DNA from: an uncultured Gammaproteobacteria bacterium
GTDB taxonomy: Bacteria > Pseudomonadota > Gammaproteobacteria > CAWJOP01
NCBI GenBank assembly: GCA_963844535.1
Contig: CAWJOP010000002.1
Span: forward strand, 238,013-302,012
Length of the DNA: 64,000 bases
Reading direction: 5' to 3'
Position numbers and translations under genes: made by a program. This document shows positions 26,095 through 64,000 of the stretch, piece by piece (position 1 is the stretch's first letter; the number at the start of each line of letters is the position of its first letter). Below the pieces are notes generated by a model. That model saw only the letters and a program-made list of their open reading frames with translations. It ran no database searches and was not told where the DNA came from.

Positions 26095-26979
26095 TTGAAG
26101 GCTAAAGGCGTTATTTATATCGTTGCGACTCCTATCGGTAATCTGGAAGATATTACTATTCGGGCAATTCGCATTTTAAAGGAAGTTCATTTTATCGCAG
26201 CTGAAGATACTAGACATAGTCAAAAACTACTTAAATCTTTGCATATTTCAACGCCCTTGATTGCATTGCATGATTTTAATGAAAAACAACGCACAGCCAG
26301 TTTGTTAAAAAAAGTACAAGAAGGCGCTGCTATTGCATTGATTGCTGATGCAGGTACTCCTTTGATTAGTGATCCTGGTTATACGTTGGTTCAAAAGGCG
26401 CATGAACAAAACATTACGGTGATTCCTATTCCAGGACCTTGTGCTGCTATTACTGCTCTTTGCGCATCAGGGCTACCAACTGATCGATTTGTTTTTGAAG
26501 GATTTTTACCAGTGAAATCGCAAGCCAGGCAAGATCGGCTGAAAATATTGAGTGAAGAGCTGCGTACTATCATTCTTTATGAAGCACCGCATCGTATTCT
26601 TGAGTTGATTGAAGATTTGCATAGGATTTTTGGTGGTTCGCGTTTGGTGACATTGGCAAAGGAATTAACTAAAACTTTTGAGACAATTTATTGTGCAAAT
26701 TTAACGGATTTAAAAGAATGGTTAATTGCTGATCCTGTTCGTCAAAGAGGTGAATTTGTTTTAATTGTTAAGGGGCAATCAGAGCCAAAATCAGCTTTAA
26801 ATTTGGCTGAGGACACCGTATTGGCAGTTTTGCAGGCAGAATTGCCGCTTAAGCAAGCTGTTTCGTTGACTGCGAAAATTTTAGGTCAAAAGAAAAATGC
26901 AATTTACAAAAAAGCTTTGGCAAATGATTTAAGCCATGACATGGCAATCGTGTCAAAATTGAAGCGAAGTAAAAGTTAA
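26095..26979 (+). CDS. rsmI: 16S rRNA C1402 2'-O-methyltransferase; last 13 aa supplied by an inserted repeat
   Basis: VATPIGNLED, AEDTRH, DAGTPLISDPG, YEAPHR, KELTK, GEFVL. Confidence 0.95.
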   Translation: MKAKGVIYIVATPIGNLEDITIRAIRILKEVHFIAAEDTRHSQKLLKSLHISTPLIALHDFNEKQRTASLLKKVQEGAAIALIADAGTPLISDPGYTLVQKAHEQNITVIPIPGPCAAITALCASGLPTDRFVFEGFLPVKSQARQDRLKILSEELRTIILYEAPHRILELIEDLHRIFGGSRLVTLAKELTKTFETIYCANLTDLKEWLIADPVRQRGEFVLIVKGQSEPKSALNLAEDTVLAVLQAELPLKQAVSLTAKILGQKKNAIYKKALANDLSHDMAIVSKLKRSKS

Positions 26980-27284
26980 AACTAAGCGTCCCCTCTCCCA
27001 GCCCCAAAGCATAAAGAAATCTTCGAGTTTTATTCTGGGAGAGGGCCAGGGTGAGGGAAAGTGAATCAACTTCGCTATCTGTTTTGTTGCCGTTTTCCGC
27101 GGTTTTTTAGCAGAATTTATGCTTACATTGCCCTGTGGTTTTCCCTCACCCTGACCCTCTCCCAGAACCAGATCACAGCTCTTTTTAACATTCGGGCTGG
27201 GAGAGGGGACGCTTAGTTTTAACTTATACGTTTACGTTGCTTTCTCAAAAAATGCTTGAGTAAATCTCTGGCGCGATTGCTCTA
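26940..27284. mobile_element. Composite palindromic element with 10-bp target duplication, enclosing BoxC-like copy 2 (26973-27225)
   Basis: TAAGCCATGA at 26930-26939 and 27285-27294; outer imperfect IR GCAATCGTGTCA / TGGCGCGATTGC; inner element homologous to 16285-16538. Confidence 0.85.
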
Positions 27285-27345
27285 TAAGCCATGAAGACTA
27301 ACTTTAAAGTTGAAAAACATTGGCTAACGCATTATCTTTGTTAAT

Positions 27346-29943: not shown

Positions 29944-30070
29944 CCCCCCGTGAGGCCGTCATTGCGAAGCTTGCGTTGTTTGCAAGCTGAAGCAATCCAG
30001 CAAAGAAATTTAAGCATTTTTACTGGATTGCCACGCGCAACGGAGCGAGCAATGACGGCCTCACGGGGGA
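29944..30070. repeat. CGTC-type REP doublet
   Basis: CCCCCGTGAGGCCGTCATTGC ... GCAATGACGGCCTCACGGGGG; inner GCAATCCAG / CTGGATTGC. Confidence 0.9.
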
Positions 30071-30170
30071 AGCGGAGCTTTTACTAATTCTAAGTCTAAG
30101 TCATTAATAGCTATGCTAAGCATAGATCATATTTTAACTTAAATAATGCTCAGAGCAGTGCAACTAACTT

Positions 30171-49240: not shown

Positions 49241-50018
49241 TGAAGAAGCTAAAAAATGTGTTGCATTTTTGCAGTATAAAATGGCCAATGATTCCTATAG
49301 ATATGCTGGCACTTGCTTTTTTGTTGGTATCGAGAATCAATATAAATGTGTTGTAACAGCAAAACATGTTATTGAGGGAATAAAAAATAAGTACGCTCTT
49401 GAAGATGTATTCATTAGAGTAAATCTATTGAATGGCCATACACAAACAATACCTACAAAAGTTAAATCATGGCAATATCATGAAGACGAAACTGTTGATA
49501 TTGCAATACATCAATTTGATTTTGAGAACAGTTATGATCACCTTCATTATCCAGCGTCGTCATTTTTAAATGATGATTTTATTGAAAAATATGAAATAGG
49601 CTGCGGCGATGAAGTTTTCATCACTGGTTTATTTAAACCCCACTTTGGTGAAACCAAAAACTCTCCAATTGTCCGTATAGGCAATATCGCATTGATGCCA
49701 AGCGAGAAAATGCAGGTAAACGGATGTTTAAGGGACGCATATTTAATTGAATCGAGATCAATAGGTGGATTAAGTGGTTCTCCGGTATTTGTAAATTTAG
49801 GAGACGCTAGGAAATTTGGTGGTCGAATACAACATGCGCAAGGCAAGCACATCCCTCTTTTATTAGGTTTAATTCATGGCCACTTTAACTCAGAAAAAAA
49901 TGACATTGATTCTATTTCAAATAAGACGAGTGATCAGGAAAAAATAAACGTAGGGATTGCAATTGTTACACCTGTTGCTAAATTACTAGAAATAATAAAT
50001 AAAAATTCTAGAGTATAA
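49230..50018 (+). CDS. Trypsin-like serine protease
   Basis: TAKH, VDIAI and GGLSGSPV catalytic triad motifs. Confidence 0.85.
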   Translation: MKINEEAKKCVAFLQYKMANDSYRYAGTCFFVGIENQYKCVVTAKHVIEGIKNKYALEDVFIRVNLLNGHTQTIPTKVKSWQYHEDETVDIAIHQFDFENSYDHLHYPASSFLNDDFIEKYEIGCGDEVFITGLFKPHFGETKNSPIVRIGNIALMPSEKMQVNGCLRDAYLIESRSIGGLSGSPVFVNLGDARKFGGRIQHAQGKHIPLLLGLIHGHFNSEKNDIDSISNKTSDQEKINVGIAIVTPVAKLLEIINKNSRV

Positions 50019-50079
50019 AATGACACTCATTTATATGGCGATAATTTAAAAGGGGTCGTTTGAAAAATTCGTGGGTAAG

Positions 50080-50751
50080 TGTCATTCCCGAGAAGGTGCA
50101 CTAGTGTCCAGGGAAGCTGTATAATAAGCAAGCTGTTTTTCTGTAAAAAAATAAAAATATACATCCCCTCTCCCAGTCCCAAAGCATAGAAAAATCTTCG
50201 AGTTTTATTCTGGGAGAGGGCCAGGGTGAGGGGAAACCACAAAATGGTACAACCAATAAATCATGCGAAGGTACTAAGAAAAAAAGCAACTGAAGCAGAA
50301 ACTCAATTGTGGTACTTTTTAAGAAATAGAAAATTAAAGGGCTATAAATTTAAGCGACAAGAAATGATTAGCCCTTACATTGTTGATTTTATTTGCCATT
50401 ATAAAAAATTAATTGTTGAACTCGACGGTGGTCAACATGCGTTTTCACAGGGATATGATAAAAAACGTACAGCATTTTTAGAAAAGCAAGGATATAAAGT
50501 GGTTCGTTTTTGGAATAATGAAATGTTCAATCATGTGGACGAAATACTAGCTACCGTTTTAACTGAGCTAGAGAAGAGATAGCAAAGTTTATTCAATCTC
50601 CCTCACCCTGGCCCTCTCCCAGAATAAAACTCGAAGATTTTTCTATGCTTTGGGGCTGGGAGAGGGGATGTATATTTTTATTTTTTACAGAAAAACAGCT
50701 TGCTTATTATACAGCTTCCCCGGACACTAGTGCACCTTCTTGGGAATGACA
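50080..50751. mobile_element. DUF559 nuclease element with ~152-bp inverted arms
   Basis: Arms 50080-50232 and 50600-50751 are near-perfect reverse complements; each holds a BoxC-like hairpin CCCCTCTCCCA...TGGGAGAGGGCCAGGGTGAGGG. Confidence 0.85.
50244..50582 (+). CDS. DUF559 / Vsr-like PD-(D/E)xK endonuclease
   Basis: LRKKATEAE..LW..LR, KFKRQ, YIVDF, LIVELDGGQH, D..R..FLE..GY.VVRFWNNE; ATG 50244 with RBS provided by the arm end. Confidence 0.92.
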   Translation: MVQPINHAKVLRKKATEAETQLWYFLRNRKLKGYKFKRQEMISPYIVDFICHYKKLIVELDGGQHAFSQGYDKKRTAFLEKQGYKVVRFWNNEMFNHVDEILATVLTELEKR

Positions 50752-50900
50752 ATTAAATTATGAGGAAGAGGAACTAACCCCAAAATTCTTTAAACGAACC
50801 TTTTAAAAGTATTCCGGGAAGCTTATCGGCATAATTAAGCAAAGTCGTTAGAGAAGGAAACAGAAACAATATTTAATTACCAAAAACCTGAGACCTTGCC

Positions 50901-51275
50901 ATGAAAATCCACAACCCTTTATTTTTATCGCTGGCTATGCAAGCAAAAACAAATATTCAAGAAATTGATGTGCATGAGGCAAATAAGCTTCTTCTTGATG
51001 GCAAAATGGTTTTTATTGATGTGCGCGAAGAATCTGAATGGCAGCGAGGACATTTACCTGGTGCTATTCATTTGAGTAAGGGTGTGATTGAGCGAGATAT
51101 TGAAAAACATATTCCTGATACTTCAACACCTTTGGTGTTGTATTGTAGTGGTGGTTATCGATCGGCGCTCGCAACCCAAAGTATTCAAAATATGGGTTAT
51201 AAAAATGTTTGTTCTATAGAAGGGGGCTTAACAACTTGGAACAATGCGGGTTATCCTTTAATTTCTGATGAATAA
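50901..51275 (+). CDS. Rhodanese-like sulfurtransferase
   Basis: IDVREESEW, GHLPGA, YCSGGYRSA. Confidence 0.92.
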   Translation: MKIHNPLFLSLAMQAKTNIQEIDVHEANKLLLDGKMVFIDVREESEWQRGHLPGAIHLSKGVIERDIEKHIPDTSTPLVLYCSGGYRSALATQSIQNMGYKNVCSIEGGLTTWNNAGYPLISDE

Positions 51276-51307
51276 AGAGGGATTAATCGTGTTTATTTTT
51301 ATACTAT

Positions 51308-53201: not shown

Positions 53202-53316
53202 GTGTTTATAAGGGATTTGGAGGATTGACAAAACTCAAAATTTAGTTCGGTGCTATACTGGTGCTATGTTAAAGATATAATTTTAGTAAGTTTCATTAAT
53301 TTTCAGCAAATATTTT

Positions 53317-53961
53317 GGGTCTTTCCCAAAAGAGGGGGCAGTTAATTAGGAACATAATACTTTAACTCTAAGTCTATAATTTTCAAAATTTCTAAAGCCA
53401 TAAGCCCTACGTTGAATCAATTTCATTTTTCGATGAAAGCCTTCAGTAATGCCATTATTTTTAACAAACCGCCACATGCGGACGATCTCTTCTCGCCATT
53501 GGTAAAAGGTATTAGCTAAAGTCACTAACGGTTTAAAACGGGATGCTTTCAGTTGCAAAAGATAATTCCTAAATATCGGAAGTAACCGTTTACAGTATTT
53601 AGCTTTACGATGCTTGTGCATTAACAGGCGATGAAAGCGCTGTTTAAAATCGTAGATAGCGGCAACAGGAGGTTGTTGCCTAAAGTAAGCGTCTCGTAAT
53701 TGAAGTTGTTTTGGAGTGAGACGATTAGGATGAGTACGCAGCATGCCTAATAAGCCGCGTTGATAGCGTAAATTAGGGTCTATCGCGTGATAGGTTTGTA
53801 AACACATTTGTTGTAGTAATCGAATGACATGAAAACGGTCGGCCACTATTTTAGGGTCTTTCCCAAAAGAGGGGGCGGTTAATTAGGAACATAATACTTT
53901 AACTCTTAATCTATAATTTTCAAAATTACGAAAGCCATGAGCCCTGCGTTGAATCAACTTC
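53317..53961 (-). mobile_element. Two tandem ISL3-family right-end remnants (53317-53853 and 53854-53961)
   Basis: ADRFHV, NNGITEGFHRKMKLIQRRAYGFRNFENYRLR; end GGGTCTTTCCCAAAAGAGGGGGC repeated at 53317 and 53854. Confidence 0.88.
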
Positions 53962-54172: not shown

Positions 54173-54382
54173 GAGGAATAATACCTAAATCCGTATAGGT
54201 TATCTGTAGTATAATTCATGTACTGTTTGTAGGATTTTTATGACATGTCAAAAAGTCGAAAATTGGTATTTCTGTAATACCTTTCCAAAAGACTTAGGTT
54301 AAGGGTTTCAGTAAGCGCTTCCCGAAGCGCTTATCAAAGCATTATTTTCTGTAATAATGCATCATTCAACAAGCATCAATCT

Positions 54383-54739
54383 TTAATAATGATCAGTTCT
54401 TAGATTTTTTACTTCACTTATTTTTGCACATTGTAATCGTTTTAATATCTCTCTTGCTTGCTCATTTTTTCCAGCCATGTTAGTTCTGATGTTATTGGTG
54501 GTTTTTTTAACCACGTTGATGAAAGCTTGATAATAGTCTGGATAACTTAGATCGCGTAGGGTGCGAAAACTACTGATCGCCAACACCACCATGTGTGCCA
54601 TTGCATCCGATAATGGCTTTAAGGCTCCTGAATGTTTTCTAAAATCACCGTGATCATGATTTAAAAAATAGCTGAGATAGGGCTGATAGCAACCAATATA
54701 GCTACCATCCGCTAAACAAGCTGCAAAACCCAACCCCAC
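54383..54739 (-). CDS. Hypothetical protein; frame open further upstream without a start codon, possibly degenerate
   Basis: ORF track; reading frame stays open to about 54886. Confidence 0.35.
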   Translation of the reverse strand: MGLGFAACLADGSYIGCYQPYLSYFLNHDHGDFRKHSGALKPLSDAMAHMVVLAISSFRTLRDLSYPDYYQAFINVVKKTTNNIRTNMAGKNEQAREILKRLQCAKISEVKNLRTDHY

Positions 54740-55226
54740 TAAAGTTCGGATATCTCGAACAAAATCATCTCCGAGTGGGCTTGAATGTGTGGCATAGTAT
54801 TCAAAGGAAATATGAAAAAGCTCCGCAAGACAAGTAATATCGCCGTTGCGTGAAGGCGGCGCAGCCGCTACACTGGTGGGAACCTGTTAACCTCTTCGCA
54901 GGTTGATATGGCCAGCACCGTGTAAAGTGTTCAAGCACTTTCGCGGTGCGCCTAAACTTAAGAAAGATGAAAGGCTAGTGCTTAAATTCTCGCGTGCCTC
55001 ATCTTCTCAAATTTACCGATTTCCTGGCTATTATCACCACGAAATCAGCTTGTTTATCCTGGCTGATACAAGACTAAATGTCAACGGCTCAACATCCGTT
55101 GTAGCAGCAATCCTGTAATGTCCTCTTTGAGCAATTTAGAGATGTCCTATTTTGCCCTTAGTTTTTAGGTAGTCTAAAAGACCATCTAAAGCTGAGGAAC
55201 CGATCAGGGCAATTGGACGATTTACG

Positions 55227-59362: not shown

Positions 59363-59727
59363 AGAGATGTCTCATAATGTTAGTTGCTCCCTGCAAATTT
59401 TTTGAGTTTTATTAGTAATATCGCAATTATAATTAAGCATGCTGATCTTGCAAGCTAATATCTATTTTTGAATTTAAGCAAATATTCATCAAAAACCAAA
59501 CTACTGCCATCAGTTTGGCTTTCGGCTAAAGCCAAATAAAGACATTAAAGGAAATAGTTCTTGGAGATAGGGGTTTAACCATTTAGAGAACTATAGAAAG
59601 ATTACACATTAGTTTTTTAAGCAATCTAAAATCTCTCCGCCAAAAGCGGACATCCCTATCTTGCTAAAAAGAGGACATCTCTAAATTGCTTTGACACGAT
59701 CTAACGTCCGTATTAGCTACTGTCAAG

Positions 59728-62700
59728 TCAAATTAAAATAGGTTTTTTTGCCTTTTGTTTTTCTTCTACAAGTCTGCTTAGCTTTTCAATGGTCGGTGCA
59801 GTTATCGCAATATCGTGTACGTTGAACTCAACGTTAAACACTTTTTCGATTTCGACAATCAGTTGCACACTTAACAAAGAAGTACCTCCCATGTCATAAA
59901 AATGATGATGAATACCGATCTGATTAATACCCAGCACCTCTTTCCAAATTTCTGCTAGCTTTTTCTGAATCGCTGTTTTGGGCAAAACATAGTTTTCCTT
60001 ACTTAGTGGATAAAGTATTTTAGGTAAGGCTTTCCGATCAATCTTGCCGTTGGAGCTAATTGGCAATGCTTTAAGAAAGATAAAGTAACTGGGGATCATA
60101 TAGTGAGGTAAGTGAACGCGTAAAAAACTTTTAATTCGACTGATCAAATGACGATGGATACGCGGCAAAAGCGGTTTGTTTGTGTAGTATTCCCAAGCTT
60201 GAGTTAATTCTTCCTGACTGTTTTGTAAGAAATATAAATAATCCCGATTCACTGGCTCCGACATAGATTTTTTCCTAAATAGCACCTGAAAATGATTGAT
60301 AGAATTTTCGCTTGACCAACTAATACTCGCGTAATAACCATGTTCTGTTGCAATTTCATAAATAACTTCTGGGGCAACTGAATGTGTTTTTGCTGTATTG
60401 ATAAGTTGTTTACAGTGCAAAAACCAATCTTCTTCCTGAGAAAAATCTTCTTTGAGTATCTGACTGATACCCGCTACGCGCTGATTAAGAATATTTTTAA
60501 TCGCAAAATAAGTTGGGTTTTCTTCGGATAAAATGGTATGTAGCTTATCTAAATGAAACTGCTCTTGTTGCCAATCATGCCAAGTTACGGTTTCAGCAGG
60601 GTTATTAACTACGTGGTCGATATATAAAATGACATCATAACGAAAGCGGTTCATTTCGTTATGGAATTTACCTTCTTTGAGCAATATTTCTACATGGCTG
60701 ATACGTGGCTCTATTTTTTGTAGTGCATAAAAGAAATTAGCATCAATTATCAATTCATTTTCTTCTTCAACTGAACGATCAACTAGTGCTTTCCACTCTA
60801 AATAAGTCAGATTTTGAATGTTTTTATTCAGTAGTGCTTGAGCATGAAAAGAGCGAAGGTGAACCAAACTTCTAATATCGCCGATAAATAAATGTCCTTT
60901 AGCGCGAATTTTACTGATACATTGTTTTAAAACATCCAAAAGGTATTCTACATTGGGAAAATATTGAACAACGGAATTTAAAATGACCGTGTCATAAGTT
61001 TTGGTAAACTGTTTGGTCTGGTTTGCTTCACATTGAATGAGTTTGACTTGTTTTAAATTTAATGGATTTAATAGTTCTTGAACATGATGTAATGTCTTGC
61101 TTGAAAAATCGCTAGCATCATAATACTCCATTTCAGGAGCCAAACGGAACAACAATAATCCTGTGCCGCAGCCAATTTCCAGAACCGATTGTGGTTGTAA
61201 GGATAAAATGCGTTTTATGGTACAATTGACCCATTCTTGCATTTGAATTTGAGGGATAGGTTTATTTGAGTCACTACTCACCCAACCTGCGGTATTGAAA
61301 TAGGGATCATCAGAAGTTTGTAAGGTATTCGCTAGACATAATTCATCATATACTTTTTGCCAATACTGCGTTTGTTCAGTTTGTAATTCAGAGGCGGTGG
61401 CTTCTTCTAATACACCTAACTTTTTTTGTAGTGTGAGATAAGCGGCTAGTTTTTGGCGGGTTCCTGCTTCAATAGGCAGTACTAAAGCTTGTTTAATACC
61501 AGGAAAATCCAGTAAGTATTTTTCTATTGCATTTACTTCGATACGGTATCCCGCAATTTTCACTTGGAAATCAATCCGGCCTAAAAATTCAATATTTCCA
61601 TCGGGTAAGTAGCGACCTAGATCACCCGTTTTATAAATAAACCCGTAACGAGGATGTTGAATAAATTGTGCCGCTGTACGTTCTGTATCTCGCCAATAGC
61701 CTTTAGCGACGCCTTGTCCACCAATAAATAATGCGCCACTTTCACCTGCTGGGGCAGGATTTAATGCTTCATCTAAAATGTAAAAGGCTTGATTTTTCAT
61801 GGCTTTTCCATAGGGAATGCTTTTCCACTTTGGGTCGACACTATGAATGGGGTAAAGAATAGACCAAATCGATGCTTCGGTTGCACCACCTAAACTAATG
61901 ACATCCACTGAGCCAAACACATCTCGGATTTTTTGCGGAAGGTCTAGGGGAATCCAGTCGCCACTCAATAAAACCAGACGAAGCTCATGATCAGGAATTT
62001 TGGTATATTTATGCGTTAAGTATTCGATGAAAATATTCATGAGCGCCGGAACAGAATCCCAGACTGAAATTTTTTCTTTAAAGAAAATAGTATCCCAACG
62101 GGTCGGATCACCTGCATCGGCTGGATGAGTCATGACAATCGTACTGCCTGCGGTAAGTGCACCGAAAATATCATAAACTGATAGGTCAAAGGTCAAAGCA
62201 GAAATAGCAAAAATCTTATCTCTCTCATCGACTGAAAACCGTTCATTAATATCGAGAATCGTATTCATTGCAGCTTGGTGGGTAATCATGACGCCTTTGG
62301 GTGTGCCCGTAGAACCCGAAGTAAACACGACATAAGCTAAATCTTCTGCACTTTGTTGTGCCGGGAGAAATATCGTTTGATCTTCATTATTTGGAACCAG
62401 TGAATCAACAAAAATAAGGGTTTTATCCTGCGGCCATGCAGAGCATTTTTGATACTGACTTTGCGTCAGTATCACATTCACTTCACCAATATCCAACAAA
62501 TATCGCAAACGTTCAGGGGATTCATTTGGATCAATTGGCAAATAGGCTGCTCCAGATTTTAGAATACCCAATACCGCAACAACCTGTTCCCAACCCTTTT
62601 CCATCACAACAGCCACAAGTTGGTTAGATTTAACTTGTAAGGTAAGAAGCTTTTTAGCAAGGTGGTTAGCTATCGTTGCGAGTTCGCGATAAGTGATTTG

Positions 62701-62787
62701 CCGTACGGGGGTACAAATAGCCATCGCATGTGGATTTTTATCCAAACTATGTTCAAAATATTCGTGTAACAATTTTGTCACTGTCAT
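59728..62787 (-). CDS. Stand-alone NRPS module: adenylation domain interrupted by a methyltransferase, plus PCP (A-MT-T)
   Basis: FTSGSTGTPKG, YKTGDLG, GRIDFQVKIAG, VLEIGCGTG, NSVVQYFP, NGKIDR, FYDMGGTSL; ATG 62787 after GGAG. Confidence 0.92.
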   Translation of the reverse strand: MTVTKLLHEYFEHSLDKNPHAMAICTPVRQITYRELATIANHLAKKLLTLQVKSNQLVAVVMEKGWEQVVAVLGILKSGAAYLPIDPNESPERLRYLLDIGEVNVILTQSQYQKCSAWPQDKTLIFVDSLVPNNEDQTIFLPAQQSAEDLAYVVFTSGSTGTPKGVMITHQAAMNTILDINERFSVDERDKIFAISALTFDLSVYDIFGALTAGSTIVMTHPADAGDPTRWDTIFFKEKISVWDSVPALMNIFIEYLTHKYTKIPDHELRLVLLSGDWIPLDLPQKIRDVFGSVDVISLGGATEASIWSILYPIHSVDPKWKSIPYGKAMKNQAFYILDEALNPAPAGESGALFIGGQGVAKGYWRDTERTAAQFIQHPRYGFIYKTGDLGRYLPDGNIEFLGRIDFQVKIAGYRIEVNAIEKYLLDFPGIKQALVLPIEAGTRQKLAAYLTLQKKLGVLEEATASELQTEQTQYWQKVYDELCLANTLQTSDDPYFNTAGWVSSDSNKPIPQIQMQEWVNCTIKRILSLQPQSVLEIGCGTGLLLFRLAPEMEYYDASDFSSKTLHHVQELLNPLNLKQVKLIQCEANQTKQFTKTYDTVILNSVVQYFPNVEYLLDVLKQCISKIRAKGHLFIGDIRSLVHLRSFHAQALLNKNIQNLTYLEWKALVDRSVEEENELIIDANFFYALQKIEPRISHVEILLKEGKFHNEMNRFRYDVILYIDHVVNNPAETVTWHDWQQEQFHLDKLHTILSEENPTYFAIKNILNQRVAGISQILKEDFSQEEDWFLHCKQLINTAKTHSVAPEVIYEIATEHGYYASISWSSENSINHFQVLFRKKSMSEPVNRDYLYFLQNSQEELTQAWEYYTNKPLLPRIHRHLISRIKSFLRVHLPHYMIPSYFIFLKALPISSNGKIDRKALPKILYPLSKENYVLPKTAIQKKLAEIWKEVLGINQIGIHHHFYDMGGTSLLSVQLIVEIEKVFNVEFNVHDIAITAPTIEKLSRLVEEKQKAKKPILI

Positions 62788-63261
62788 ATATTTACATCTC
62801 CTACCTATAAACAATCAAATTAAAAGCATAAATTGAGCCACAAGACCAATAGCAAACATCGAAAAATGTTTTCGCTTCAGGGGCCATCCTTTTCTCAAAA
62901 GGAAGCTTATTAGCCCTACTATAGCGCAACTTGAGAAATAAAATTAACTTCAAAGGTAAAAAAACATCAATTCTTAGGTTGACGGGAAGTAATGATTGAT
63001 AATAAACAAAGAAGCTAAAAAATAATGAAAAAAATTAAGGTTTGTATAAAGATAAAATTTACTATGAGGAAAGACTTGCCGTGGTCTTGACCTTGATAAG
63101 ATTTTCTTCCACCAAGGAAATATTTCTGCTCCCAAAGGAAACGCATTACTTTTTTTAAATTATGCAAGCTGTTTAGAAGGATTTTTTATGGTAAATTAAC
63201 ACCATACGCTTAAAAAATACTATTTACTGCACGCGTAATTAAAAGCATAGAGATTTAAGTT

Positions 63262-64000
63262 ATGGACAAACTTAGGGAAAAAACTGAAGGGGTTGATGAT
63301 CTCAAAGCTCTTATAGAGCAGCAACAAGCCATTATTGAAGAAAAAAGAGCTGAAATCTTTCGTCTTAAAAGTGTGATTGAAAAGCTACCCGGGAGTATTT
63401 ATTGGAAAGATAAACATGGCGTTTATCTAGGTTGTAATGAATTTGTGCTCAAAATGGCAGGGGTGCGCCATGACAAAGAAATCATTGGGAAGACTGATTT
63501 TAATATGCCCTGGAAAAAGTATGCTGAAGAATTACACGCCATCGATCAACAAGTATTAGAAACCGAGCTTCCGATAGAAACAGAAGAATCCCCTGTGTTA
63601 GCAAATGGTCAGCAAGCTATTATGTTAACGCATAAAGCACCACTGCGTGATGAAAATGGTGACGTCATAGGAATTATCGGCGTATCGGTCGATATTACTG
63701 AACGTAAACAAATGGAAGCACTTCTTGAAGAGGCCAAAAATAAAGCAGAACTGGCTAACCAAACAAAAACGGCTTTTCTTGAAAATATGCGTCATGATAT
63801 ACGTACCCCTTTGACCGGTATTATTGGCTGTGCGGATATTCTTAAAGAAACCTCTACCAATCCAGAAGTCAATGAATACCTTGATGGGTTAGTCACTTCT
63901 AGCCACGCATTGCTTAACTTGCTTAATGAAGTATTAGAAGCCAGTAAAGTAAATTCTGGTGAAATTCCTCTACTCAAACGTAAATTTGATCTCAAAGCCA
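63262..64000 (+). CDS. PAS-domain histidine kinase, truncated by the window edge; paralog of 45777-48200
   Basis: Read from sequence: MDKLREK...LPGSIYWKDKHGVYLGCN...GKTDFNMPW...DITERK...FLENMRHDIRTPLTG. Confidence 0.9.
   Translation, partial: MDKLREKTEGVDDLKALIEQQQAIIEEKRAEIFRLKSVIEKLPGSIYWKDKHGVYLGCNEFVLKMAGVRHDKEIIGKTDFNMPWKKYAEELHAIDQQVLETELPIETEESPVLANGQQAIMLTHKAPLRDENGDVIGIIGVSVDITERKQMEALLEEAKNKAELANQTKTAFLENMRHDIRTPLTGIIGCADILKETSTNPEVNEYLDGLVTSSHALLNLLNEVLEASKVNSGEIPLLKRKFDLKA

Follow-up and report, generated by a model that had tools for sequence, protein, structure and literature searches.

A DUF559 nuclease gene between inverted BoxC-type motifs, and its gene-less relatives, in an uncultured gammaproteobacterium

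The DUF559 locus and the closest described systems

The BoxC/PIT/TMECO repeats have been known since the 1990s. Their pattern is 5'-CCCTCNCCC N3-6 GGGNGAGGG N3 GGGNGAGGG, and 3610 copies were reported from 262 proteobacterial genomes, with 23 copies in Escherichia coli MG1655, five as inverted pairs (Holder et al. 2015, PMC4666352). According to the accessible part of that paper the single-stranded motif forms a stable triplex in vitro and is linked with local genomic instability, it is unassociated with transposons, phages and plasmids, with no transposase or integrase remnants nearby, and most of the E. coli loci are conserved between strains; neither the word endonuclease nor the name ycjD occurs in the portion available. 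The same sequence has been presented as a quadruplex-hairpin switch, with no gene named in the accessible text (PMC5100583), and BoxC is listed among the stem-loop families of E. coli in the available part of PMC2267715. The origin and the spreading mechanism of these repeats are absent from the searchable literature, and this literature, which leaves subscription journals outside, contains no report that links them with DUF559. Here we describe a locus in a window of 64,000 nucleotides, by which is meant the whole stretch of DNA analysed (C2:238013-302012 of the genome of an uncultured gammaproteobacterium), where a gene for a DUF559 protein is enclosed by two inverted motifs of the BoxC/PIT/TMECO type. 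It is firmly supported that the gene and the inverted motifs form one unit, which occurs scattered among bacteria, breaks down through internal deletion and is found together with high repeat loads.

The source genome measures 2.30 Mb with 38% G+C and is 96% complete in nine contigs (labelled in the style C1-C9); it is the sole member of its family among the genomes compared, and the nearest 40 share only its class. The gene, encoding 112 residues plus stop, is located at 50244-50582 on the forward strand and is enclosed by inverted arms at 50076-50232 and 50600-50755 (157 nt, 96.8% identity), which bears out the near-perfect arms of the preliminary description of this DNA, and an alignment of the four full-length copies extends the inverted repeat even further, to 50053-50801, one side having an indel of 26 nt. 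Read from the outside inwards each arm consists of a terminal segment of 27 or 50 nt, an 85-nt outer arm starting with TGTCATTCCC, and a triplex-type motif. On the left, the outermost terminal segment GGGTCGTTTGAAAAATTCGTGGGTAAG (50053..50079, +) is restricted to the long-arm copies, the outer arm (50080..50164, +) is common also to the gene-less elements called Fam3 below, and the motif (50165..50233, +) is composed of the C-block CCCCTCTCCCAG, a 33-nt loop, the G-block CTGGGAGAGGG, CCA and the third block GGGTGAGGGG. Then follow the leader AAACCACAAA (50234..50243, +), which is retained in the gene-less cores of Fam1 and Fam3, the gene itself, and the trailer CAAAGTTTATTCAATCT (50583..50599, +), a homologue of which makes up the 3' part of the Fam1 cores. 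The right motif (50600..50667, -) is an inverted copy of the left one, and beyond it are the right outer arm (50668..50751, -), ending with GGGAATGACA, and the right outermost terminal segment in its long variant with 26 extra nt (50752..50801, -). The third block GGGTGAGGGG ends 9-10 nt before the ATG and therefore occupies the position of a ribosome-binding site, as had been proposed for the left arm end, and a third block is found at this position upstream of DUF559 in other genomes as well.

Each arm motif is built of three blocks, a C-block CCCTCTCCC, a G-block GGGAGAGGG and, after CCA, a second G-block GGGTGAGGG, with blocks of 9 nt and a second loop of 3 nt. Comparison with the published three-block motif upheld the earlier statement that the arms end in BoxC-like hairpins, and judged by its sequence the arm motif is the BoxC/PIT/TMECO intrastrand triplex motif with a long first loop: the blocks are the same and stand in the same order, and both kinds are often inverted pairs, intergenic and present in high copy number. 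The two differ in the first loop, which is 30-34 nt here and 3-6 nt in the pattern given in the accessible text of PMC4666352, and in that the pairs here enclose a gene or its remnants within longer palindromic shells, whereas the available part of the same paper reports no associated gene or mobility function. The long-loop form is found also in Legionella anisa (L048) and in genome G028. Chance or an assembly artefact was rejected: in the window the motif sequence CCCTCACCCTGRCCCTCTCCCAG is present 6 times and 100 shuffles contained none, and the whole genome has 81 occurrences where 0 are expected. Plain transcription terminators were likewise rejected, since a terminator scan found none and the loops are 30-34 nt long, and a search of Rfam in E-value mode over 49500-51300 gave no match. 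The inward-pointing TATAAT promoter that had been suggested for each arm gained no support, as a simple sigma-70 scan found no promoter-like site in either arm and 3 sites in the region against 2.7 expected.

The predicted protein matches PF04480 (DUF559) with an E-value of 9.3e-41 and 138.6 bits against a cut-off of 20.6, residues 6-110 covering positions 5-109 of the 109 in the profile. At E <= 0.01 only DUF559 and MTES_1575 are matched in Pfam, the Vsr family not being among them, and the NCBIfam equivalog for YcjD, PRK09767, gives 104 bits, which is under its cut-off of 218. The nearest solved structures are 3HRL, an uncharacterised "endonuclease-like protein" (E 1.6e-41), and then 3R3P, a "mobile intron protein" (E 2.8e-4), which we take to be the catalytic domain of the homing endonuclease I-Bth0305I. 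Both structures are placed in a Vsr/DUF559 group in the accessible part of PMC3424549, where a group I intron homing endonuclease is also named. Residues D48, E59, D61 and H65 are invariant across 10 sequences, and a catalytic role is assumed for them by analogy. The DUF559 gene is the only open reading frame (ORF) in the element, in line with the earlier view of a Vsr-like PD-(D/E)xK nuclease that is no recognised transposase. Neither PADLOC nor PHROGs assigns the protein to a known system: PADLOC gave two weak partial matches, to the nuclease modules of large defence proteins (DpdF, E 1.6e-4, and Hhe), and PHROGs gave weak domain matches of which one is named homing endonuclease (E 4e-4).

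Two gene-repeat partnerships serve as further models. In the first, that of RAYTs with repetitive extragenic palindromic (REP) sequences and REPINs, a single small gene is flanked by an inverted palindromic repeat that is abundant elsewhere as gene-less singlets or inverted doublets, and repeat abundance follows the presence of the gene; the locus resembles it in both respects, and RAYTs were first tied to REPs by support of this kind. The enzyme here, however, is predicted to be a PD-(D/E)xK hydrolase instead of an HUH Y1 transposase, the gene is present in several copies and has been scattered horizontally, and the elements have target duplications; Y1/RAYT (PF01797) and IS110 had no match in the 96%-complete genome. 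With the second, the pairs of insertion sequences (IS) and miniature inverted-repeat transposable elements (MITEs), the locus shares terminal inverted repeats and target-site duplications, and in both the gene-bearing copies are outnumbered by non-autonomous ones with internal deletions, but the only gene here is no recognised transposase and the outer ends of the gene-less copies are unlike those of the gene-bearing copies. A third model is I-Bth0305I, which has a related catalytic domain and belongs to a selfish element that spreads by cleavage and host repair; it differs in sitting in a phage group I intron, with an extra DNA-binding region and a defined intron-less target, whereas no intron and no known empty target are present here.

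Intact, partial and gene-less copies in the source genome

A stem-loop pattern applied to the whole genome identified 107 hairpins, spread over 62 loci; they fall into at least six loop types, and the first loop is 30-34 nt in all 107. Four of the loci carry an intact DUF559 gene, three a partly deleted one, and 55 are gene-less. The gene-less loci comprise 14 with a core of the type called Fam1, 13 with a Fam2 core (two of them nested between gene-type arms, where they replace the gene), 5 with a Fam3 core, 5 hairpin pairs with little or no core, and 18 solo hairpins. The common plan is a terminal inverted repeat, a hairpin, GGGTGAGGG, a core, CCCTCACCC, a hairpin and a terminal inverted repeat. 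All DUF559-like sequence of the genome, four intact and three partial genes, is confined to these loci and lies within the arms. The intact copies are located at C2:288256 (the window copy), C8:230969, C3:139873 and C3:120939; all four encode the full 112 residues with 87.5-98% protein identity, and the pairwise dN/dS is 0.11-0.49, with few differences to count.

Internal deletion has produced a graded series that runs from the intact gene over gene-less cores to solo hairpins. The series is best seen in the three partial copies, C1:20541-20927, C2:43472-44072 and C5:148475-148938, since these have different internal deletions and retain parts of the gene. The Fam3 core starts with the leader and first codons of the gene, with BLAST alignments reaching 50259, and the Fam1 core retains the leader AAACCACA together with the stop codon and trailer, where 21 of 24 positions match the gene and none of 1000 shuffles equals this. 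The homology between core and gene that was claimed for the two Fam1 copies in the window therefore stands for the leader and for the stop and trailer; the match of the first codons is not significant there, with z-scores of 0.3 and 0.9, and reaches z >= 2.6 in 7 of 11 Fam1 copies. The contrast of full-length and internally deleted forms that had been described thus persists, its main support being the trailer, the leader and the three intermediates.

Of the two Fam1 elements in the window, copy 2 (26940..27284, -) carries two hairpins and a core of 85 nt between terminal inverted repeats, and copy 1 (16253..~16541, -) is truncated at the right terminus and has its core inverted relative to the hairpins, unlike the other Fam1 copies. 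The existence of these two elements was reported correctly, but not their length of about 250 bp, as a complete element measures about 345 bp and copy 1 is without its right terminus. As a single strand a short element folds as one long hairpin (-75.8 kcal/mol, z -14.75). At C4:237307-237636 and C5:207733-208065 a complete Fam2 element replaces the DUF559 gene and the inner blocks between gene-type hairpins, with symmetrical junctions, GGGCCAGGG|CTGA...TCAG|CCCTGGCCC, that show no direct repeat. The ends of other Fam2 elements adjoin CCAGGG- or GGGTGAGGG-like sequence, so that the elements seem to insert into one another's motifs.

Pairing of DUF559 genes and motifs across bacteria

Seven other genomes of the class (G+C 37-64%) contain 14 small DUF559 loci, one of them from the unpublished genome G039, and at least 12 of the 14 have the hairpin and third block upstream and the inverse downstream; some carry long outer inverted repeats as in the window. 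A scan across phyla with one genome per species gave at least 586 relatives among 599 candidate stretches. The best 80 loci of these, with 44-54% identity, come from at least nine phyla, including Pseudomonadota, Chloroflexota and Planctomycetota, two of the entries being without a phylum label. The 160 nt upstream of each gene were scored against the reverse complement of the 160 nt downstream, with 441 displaced windows from the same loci as control. The median score is 53 against 18 in the controls, and 66 of the 77 testable loci exceed the 95th percentile of the controls and 50 the 99th; DUF559 genes are thus enriched for inverted arms of the CCCTCACCC..CCCTCTCCC type, as the preliminary description had anticipated. 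The G-block motif is present in at least one flank at 71 of the 80 loci. Its variants come as matched sets, such as CCCCTCCC/GGGAGGGG with GGGGTGGGG or CCTTCTCCC/GGGAGAAGG with GGATGAGGG. Motif class and protein tree, which were expected to agree, do so modestly: on the weakly resolved tree of 80 proteins, with 8 of its 77 branches starred, motif class needs 11 changes, and in 300 shuffles it needs 12-17. Proteins of Binatota, Nitrospirota and Acidobacteriota with one motif type cluster on short branches. As the pairing recurs across so many bacterial groups, the gene may be what spreads these repeats. At L016, L019, L017, L030 and L038 the DUF559 ORF runs on into the downstream motif, and the read-through gives tails rich in proline, serine and glycine (e.g. 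...PLTPTPLPGGEGL...) that are probably annotation artefacts of the repeat.

The DUF559-plus-repeat unit is inserted among unrelated housekeeping genes and has no conserved partner gene. The 140 neighbouring ORFs of 74 loci match 171 Pfam families, the commonest being housekeeping families with at most four members each; the 25 commonest include no transposase or integrase family, and DNA methylases account for 2 of the 140. In genome G034 the unit, with GGGAGAGGG/GGGTGAGGG motifs, is located between guaB and guaA, and in its congener G337, with a guaB stretch 96% identical, the 229-nt spacer between these genes (L128 2939-3169) holds a solo motif and no gene. This solo motif is of another type, CCCTTCTCCC TTC GGGAGAAG ... 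GGGATGAGGGGG, indicating that the same spacer has been occupied by different members of the family. Eight other genomes of other families, compared with both flanks matched, have guaB-guaA spacers of 25-153 nt from which the unit is missing; the site thus differs between congeners, with flanks too diverged to define the insertion site.

Copy number follows the presence of the gene, as had been predicted. The pattern GGGAGAGGGN{2,5}GGGWGAGGG was counted in 301 Pseudomonadota genomes, each at least 90% complete, and set against DUF559 at E <= 1e-20. With at least three motif copies as threshold, 49 genomes have both motif and gene, 10 the motif only, 31 the gene only and 211 neither, an odds ratio of 33 with kinship ignored; at ten copies the numbers are 36, 6, 44 and 215, and the odds ratio 29. 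Only the higher threshold is non-trivial, because each gene brings two motifs of its own, and at this threshold DUF559 is found in 36 of the 42 motif-rich genomes against 44 of the 259 others. Motifs are far more numerous than genes, with 328 against 2 and 194 against 1 as examples, and a genome may contain up to eight copies of DUF559.

Of 5426 complete E. coli genomes, 3378 have the gene ycjD. Its stop codon in MG1655 lies within a hairpin that overlaps it, and a full BoxC motif follows about 180 nt downstream, so the earlier expectation of such motifs at ycjD was right. Strains MG1655 and 55989, which have DUF559, carry 21 and 31 motifs, and IHE3034, CFT073 and UTI89, which do not have it, carry 2 each; Sakai, with 15 motifs and no DUF559, goes against the expected link between ycjD and BoxC. 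Between the stop-codon hairpin and the BoxC motif of MG1655 about 50 nt of the 3' end of ycjD are duplicated (L041 11041-11420), and the duplicate resembles a miniature deletion derivative beside the gene.

Signs of movement and possible explanations

Fam1 elements measure about 335-345 bp and end 3 nt outside GGCAATCGCG. Direct repeats of 10 bp, with at least 8 of 10 identities in register, flank 7 of 10 elements, a level reached by none of 90 mismatched left-right pairs, and in an eighth element a 10-bp repeat fits with an offset of 2 nt. In copy 2 the repeat is perfect, TAAGCCATGA at 26930-26939 and 27285-27294. Among the four complete long-arm copies two have clear, non-palindromic direct repeats of 8 bp, ATTATTTC at C3:139657-140416 and GTTTTTTC at C4:237128, one is without a repeat, and the window copy is ambiguous, the octamer TTTAAAAG (50045..50052, no strand assigned) recurring at 50802-50809 and being either a target-site duplication or, equally well, an extension of the inverted repeat. 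Repeats of 8-10 bp are present at two Fam2 copies. The inner unit occurs in either orientation relative to the asymmetric ends of the shell, the gene being flipped in this way between the window copy and its sister at C3:139657-140416, and several elements are chimeras of arms from different families. The duplications of 8-10 bp at the shells could be produced by DUF559 cutting the base of an extruded palindrome, or by ordinary transposases acting on three kinds of ends.

The proposed explanation is that the locus would be a gene-bearing member of a family of palindromic elements, with the DUF559 gene between two inverted BoxC/PIT/TMECO-type motifs as its heart. DUF559 should then be the element's own nuclease, which would recognise the motif in unwound DNA, probably folded as hairpin, triplex or cruciform, and cut there, and host repair would thereafter copy or reinsert the element, as with a homing endonuclease or a RAYT and its REPINs. 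The joining would be left to host enzymes because the DUF559 fold only hydrolyses, and a cut at the base of a cruciform would explain how any palindromic shell could move along with the motif. A real partnership between gene and repeat, functional in some way, we consider highly probable. That DUF559 is the driving nuclease of a gene-repeat unit, the full statement, is in our judgement evenly poised between right and wrong on the comparisons made here. The wider proposal, that DUF559/YcjD proteins are the missing mobility enzymes of BoxC/PIT/TMECO repeats throughout bacteria and make up a third gene-repeat partnership beside IS-MITE and RAYT-REPIN, is tentative, and we hold its chance to be somewhat below even. 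The interpretation in the preliminary description, by which DUF559 may mobilise the repeats, is partly supported.

Several points weigh against DUF559 as the driving nuclease. A PD-(D/E)xK nuclease cannot join strands, so that the explanation needs a partner or host repair. Among the gene-less copies the terminal inverted repeats are of three unrelated kinds and the duplications are specific to the family, 10 bp in Fam1 and 8-10 bp in Fam2, and those of the long-arm family, 8 bp, differ from the 10 bp of Fam1; such a pattern would be left by separate DDE transposases that act in trans, and it is not expected of one enzyme. The outer ends of Fam1 are unlike those of the gene-bearing copies, and one deletion junction is common to all Fam1 copies, indicating that Fam1 multiplied after loss of the gene. 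No empty site for any copy was found in the genome, in its relatives, none of which is close, or in four metagenome runs. The test on 301 genomes ignores phylogeny, relatives not being independent; 6 of the 42 high-copy genomes are without the gene, and 25 genomes with the gene have a pattern count of zero, but the pattern misses variant motifs, which probably accounts for many of the genomes with gene only. Sakai is either a counter-example or a case of relics outliving the gene. IHE3034, CFT073 and UTI89 all belong to phylogroup B2 and as one lineage reduce the contrast within E. coli to roughly one event. Finally, the DUF559-domain protein VsrA of Caulobacter is interpreted as a mismatch-repair nuclease in the available part of PMC12907096, and in Legionella pneumophila Paris a segment in three copies carries a transposase together with a DUF559 gene, according to the accessible text of PMC12308824.

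The first alternative follows from some of these points. The copies may be ordinary MITEs that were moved in trans by DDE transposases now lost or unassembled, with the DUF559-hairpin cassette merely inside some of them and its protein having another function, and we regard this as unlikely. The three unrelated ends with their own duplications (10 bp at 7 of 10 Fam1 elements, 8 bp at 2 of 4 long-arm copies) and the multiplication of Fam1 from a single deletion junction after the gene was lost are what speaks most for this alternative, and ends starting with CTGA or CAG with duplications of 9-12 bp resemble, we assume, those of IS4-family elements. The genome also has active-looking DDE elements, namely two kinds of IS21 (about five copies each), an IS3 (three copies) and an IS5/IS982-like element (seven copies) to which a reverse-transcriptase ORF is joined, and in L. 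pneumophila Paris a transposase travels with DUF559 (accessible part of PMC12308824). The ends of the IS21, IS3 and IS5/IS982-like elements, however, show no resemblance to the three repeat termini, and no transposase family is among the 25 commonest families of the 140 neighbours. Passive carriage leaves unexplained why the gene-plus-motif unit occurs without such shells in many phyla, why the gene is present in motif-rich genomes, and why the unit lies at the exact centre of three different shells, and it does not account for four copies with an intact gene under purifying selection.

As a second alternative, DUF559 could be a nuclease that serves the host or is tolerated by it, acting on motif structures or on mismatches, perhaps in a Vsr-like manner, and the repeats could spread by slippage, recombination or another agent. 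We consider this improbable. Its fold and family are close to Vsr (available parts of PMC3424549 and PMC1189080), and Caulobacter VsrA, a DUF559-domain protein of the same fold superfamily, is SOS-induced and damages DNA in vivo when the cytosine methylase ScmA is missing (accessible text of PMC12907096). The stable single-strand triplex of the motif, the local genome instability, and the conservation of most E. coli loci between strains (available part of PMC4666352) would also be compatible with a repair function. Vsr and VsrA, however, belong to mismatch repair linked to cytosine methylases, whereas the gene here is embedded in repeats and has no methylase link, methylases being only 2 of the 140 neighbouring ORFs. 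A housekeeping gene is not expected between inverted copies of its own substrate, as at 66 of 77 loci, nor in up to eight copies per genome, nor scattered horizontally across phyla at 44-54% identity, nor decaying into internally deleted copies.

That the arms simply make the gene invertible, as a phase-variable switch or by plain recombination, with the short elements as unrelated regulatory hairpins, is very improbable: the gene is indeed flipped against the asymmetric outer ends in sister copies, one Fam1 core is inverted relative to its hairpins, and predicted programmed-inversion targets are 14-fold enriched for DUF559 (accessible part of PMC9881135), which is consistent with genes flanked by inverted repeats, but the genes adjacent to the locus are a trypsin-like peptidase (a weak Pfam match) and a rhodanese and no invertase, no promoter-like site was found for an inversion to connect, and the 62 dispersed loci with target duplications and the co-occurrence across genomes are left unexplained.

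The DUF559/YcjD family is very widespread, has a solved structure and is still without an assigned role, and a link with BoxC/PIT/TMECO would give both the family and the repeat testable functions and would offer a spreading mechanism for the latter. It can be tested in E. coli K-12, which has its own ycjD gene and its own BoxC copies. If the nuclease does act on the motif, it would represent a new class of enzyme in bacterial repeat biology, a hydrolase of the Vsr fold whose substrate is a DNA structure (hairpin, triplex or cruciform base) and which leaves copying and joining to host repair; it would also explain many of the spurious proline- and glycine-rich extensions of annotated DUF559 ORFs, and might be of interest as a structure-specific tool.

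Some further observations concern the search for empty sites, the resident elements and the rest of the window. C4:91306-93304, which looks like a split repeat, was rejected as an empty site, since a gene is duplicated there in tandem and the element lies between its two copies. The four metagenome runs, assembled in short contigs, contain related elements, but no contig joins across an element and the joints found are other family members; a contig of run X3 that covers the gene has 9 differences in 373 nt, and no sequencing run searched contains more than 0.15 of the words of the locus. The IS5/IS982-like repeat, represented at C2:93300-97300, is 3.65 kb long with seven copies, and in addition to a DDE transposase ORF and an RVT_1 (group II intron-like) ORF it carries an ORF of 423 residues without a Pfam match. 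The genome also contains paralogues of the Legionella major outer-membrane protein family. In the window, positions 29982-30084 (C2:267994-268096) hold a copy of another dispersed repeat, which is about 100 nt long, has no relation to the hairpin family and finds dozens of matches in the genome, and the segments 53316-53854, 54364-55086, 59696-62962 and 63243-64000, of 0.5-3.3 kb, are repeated in the genome at 80% identity or more.

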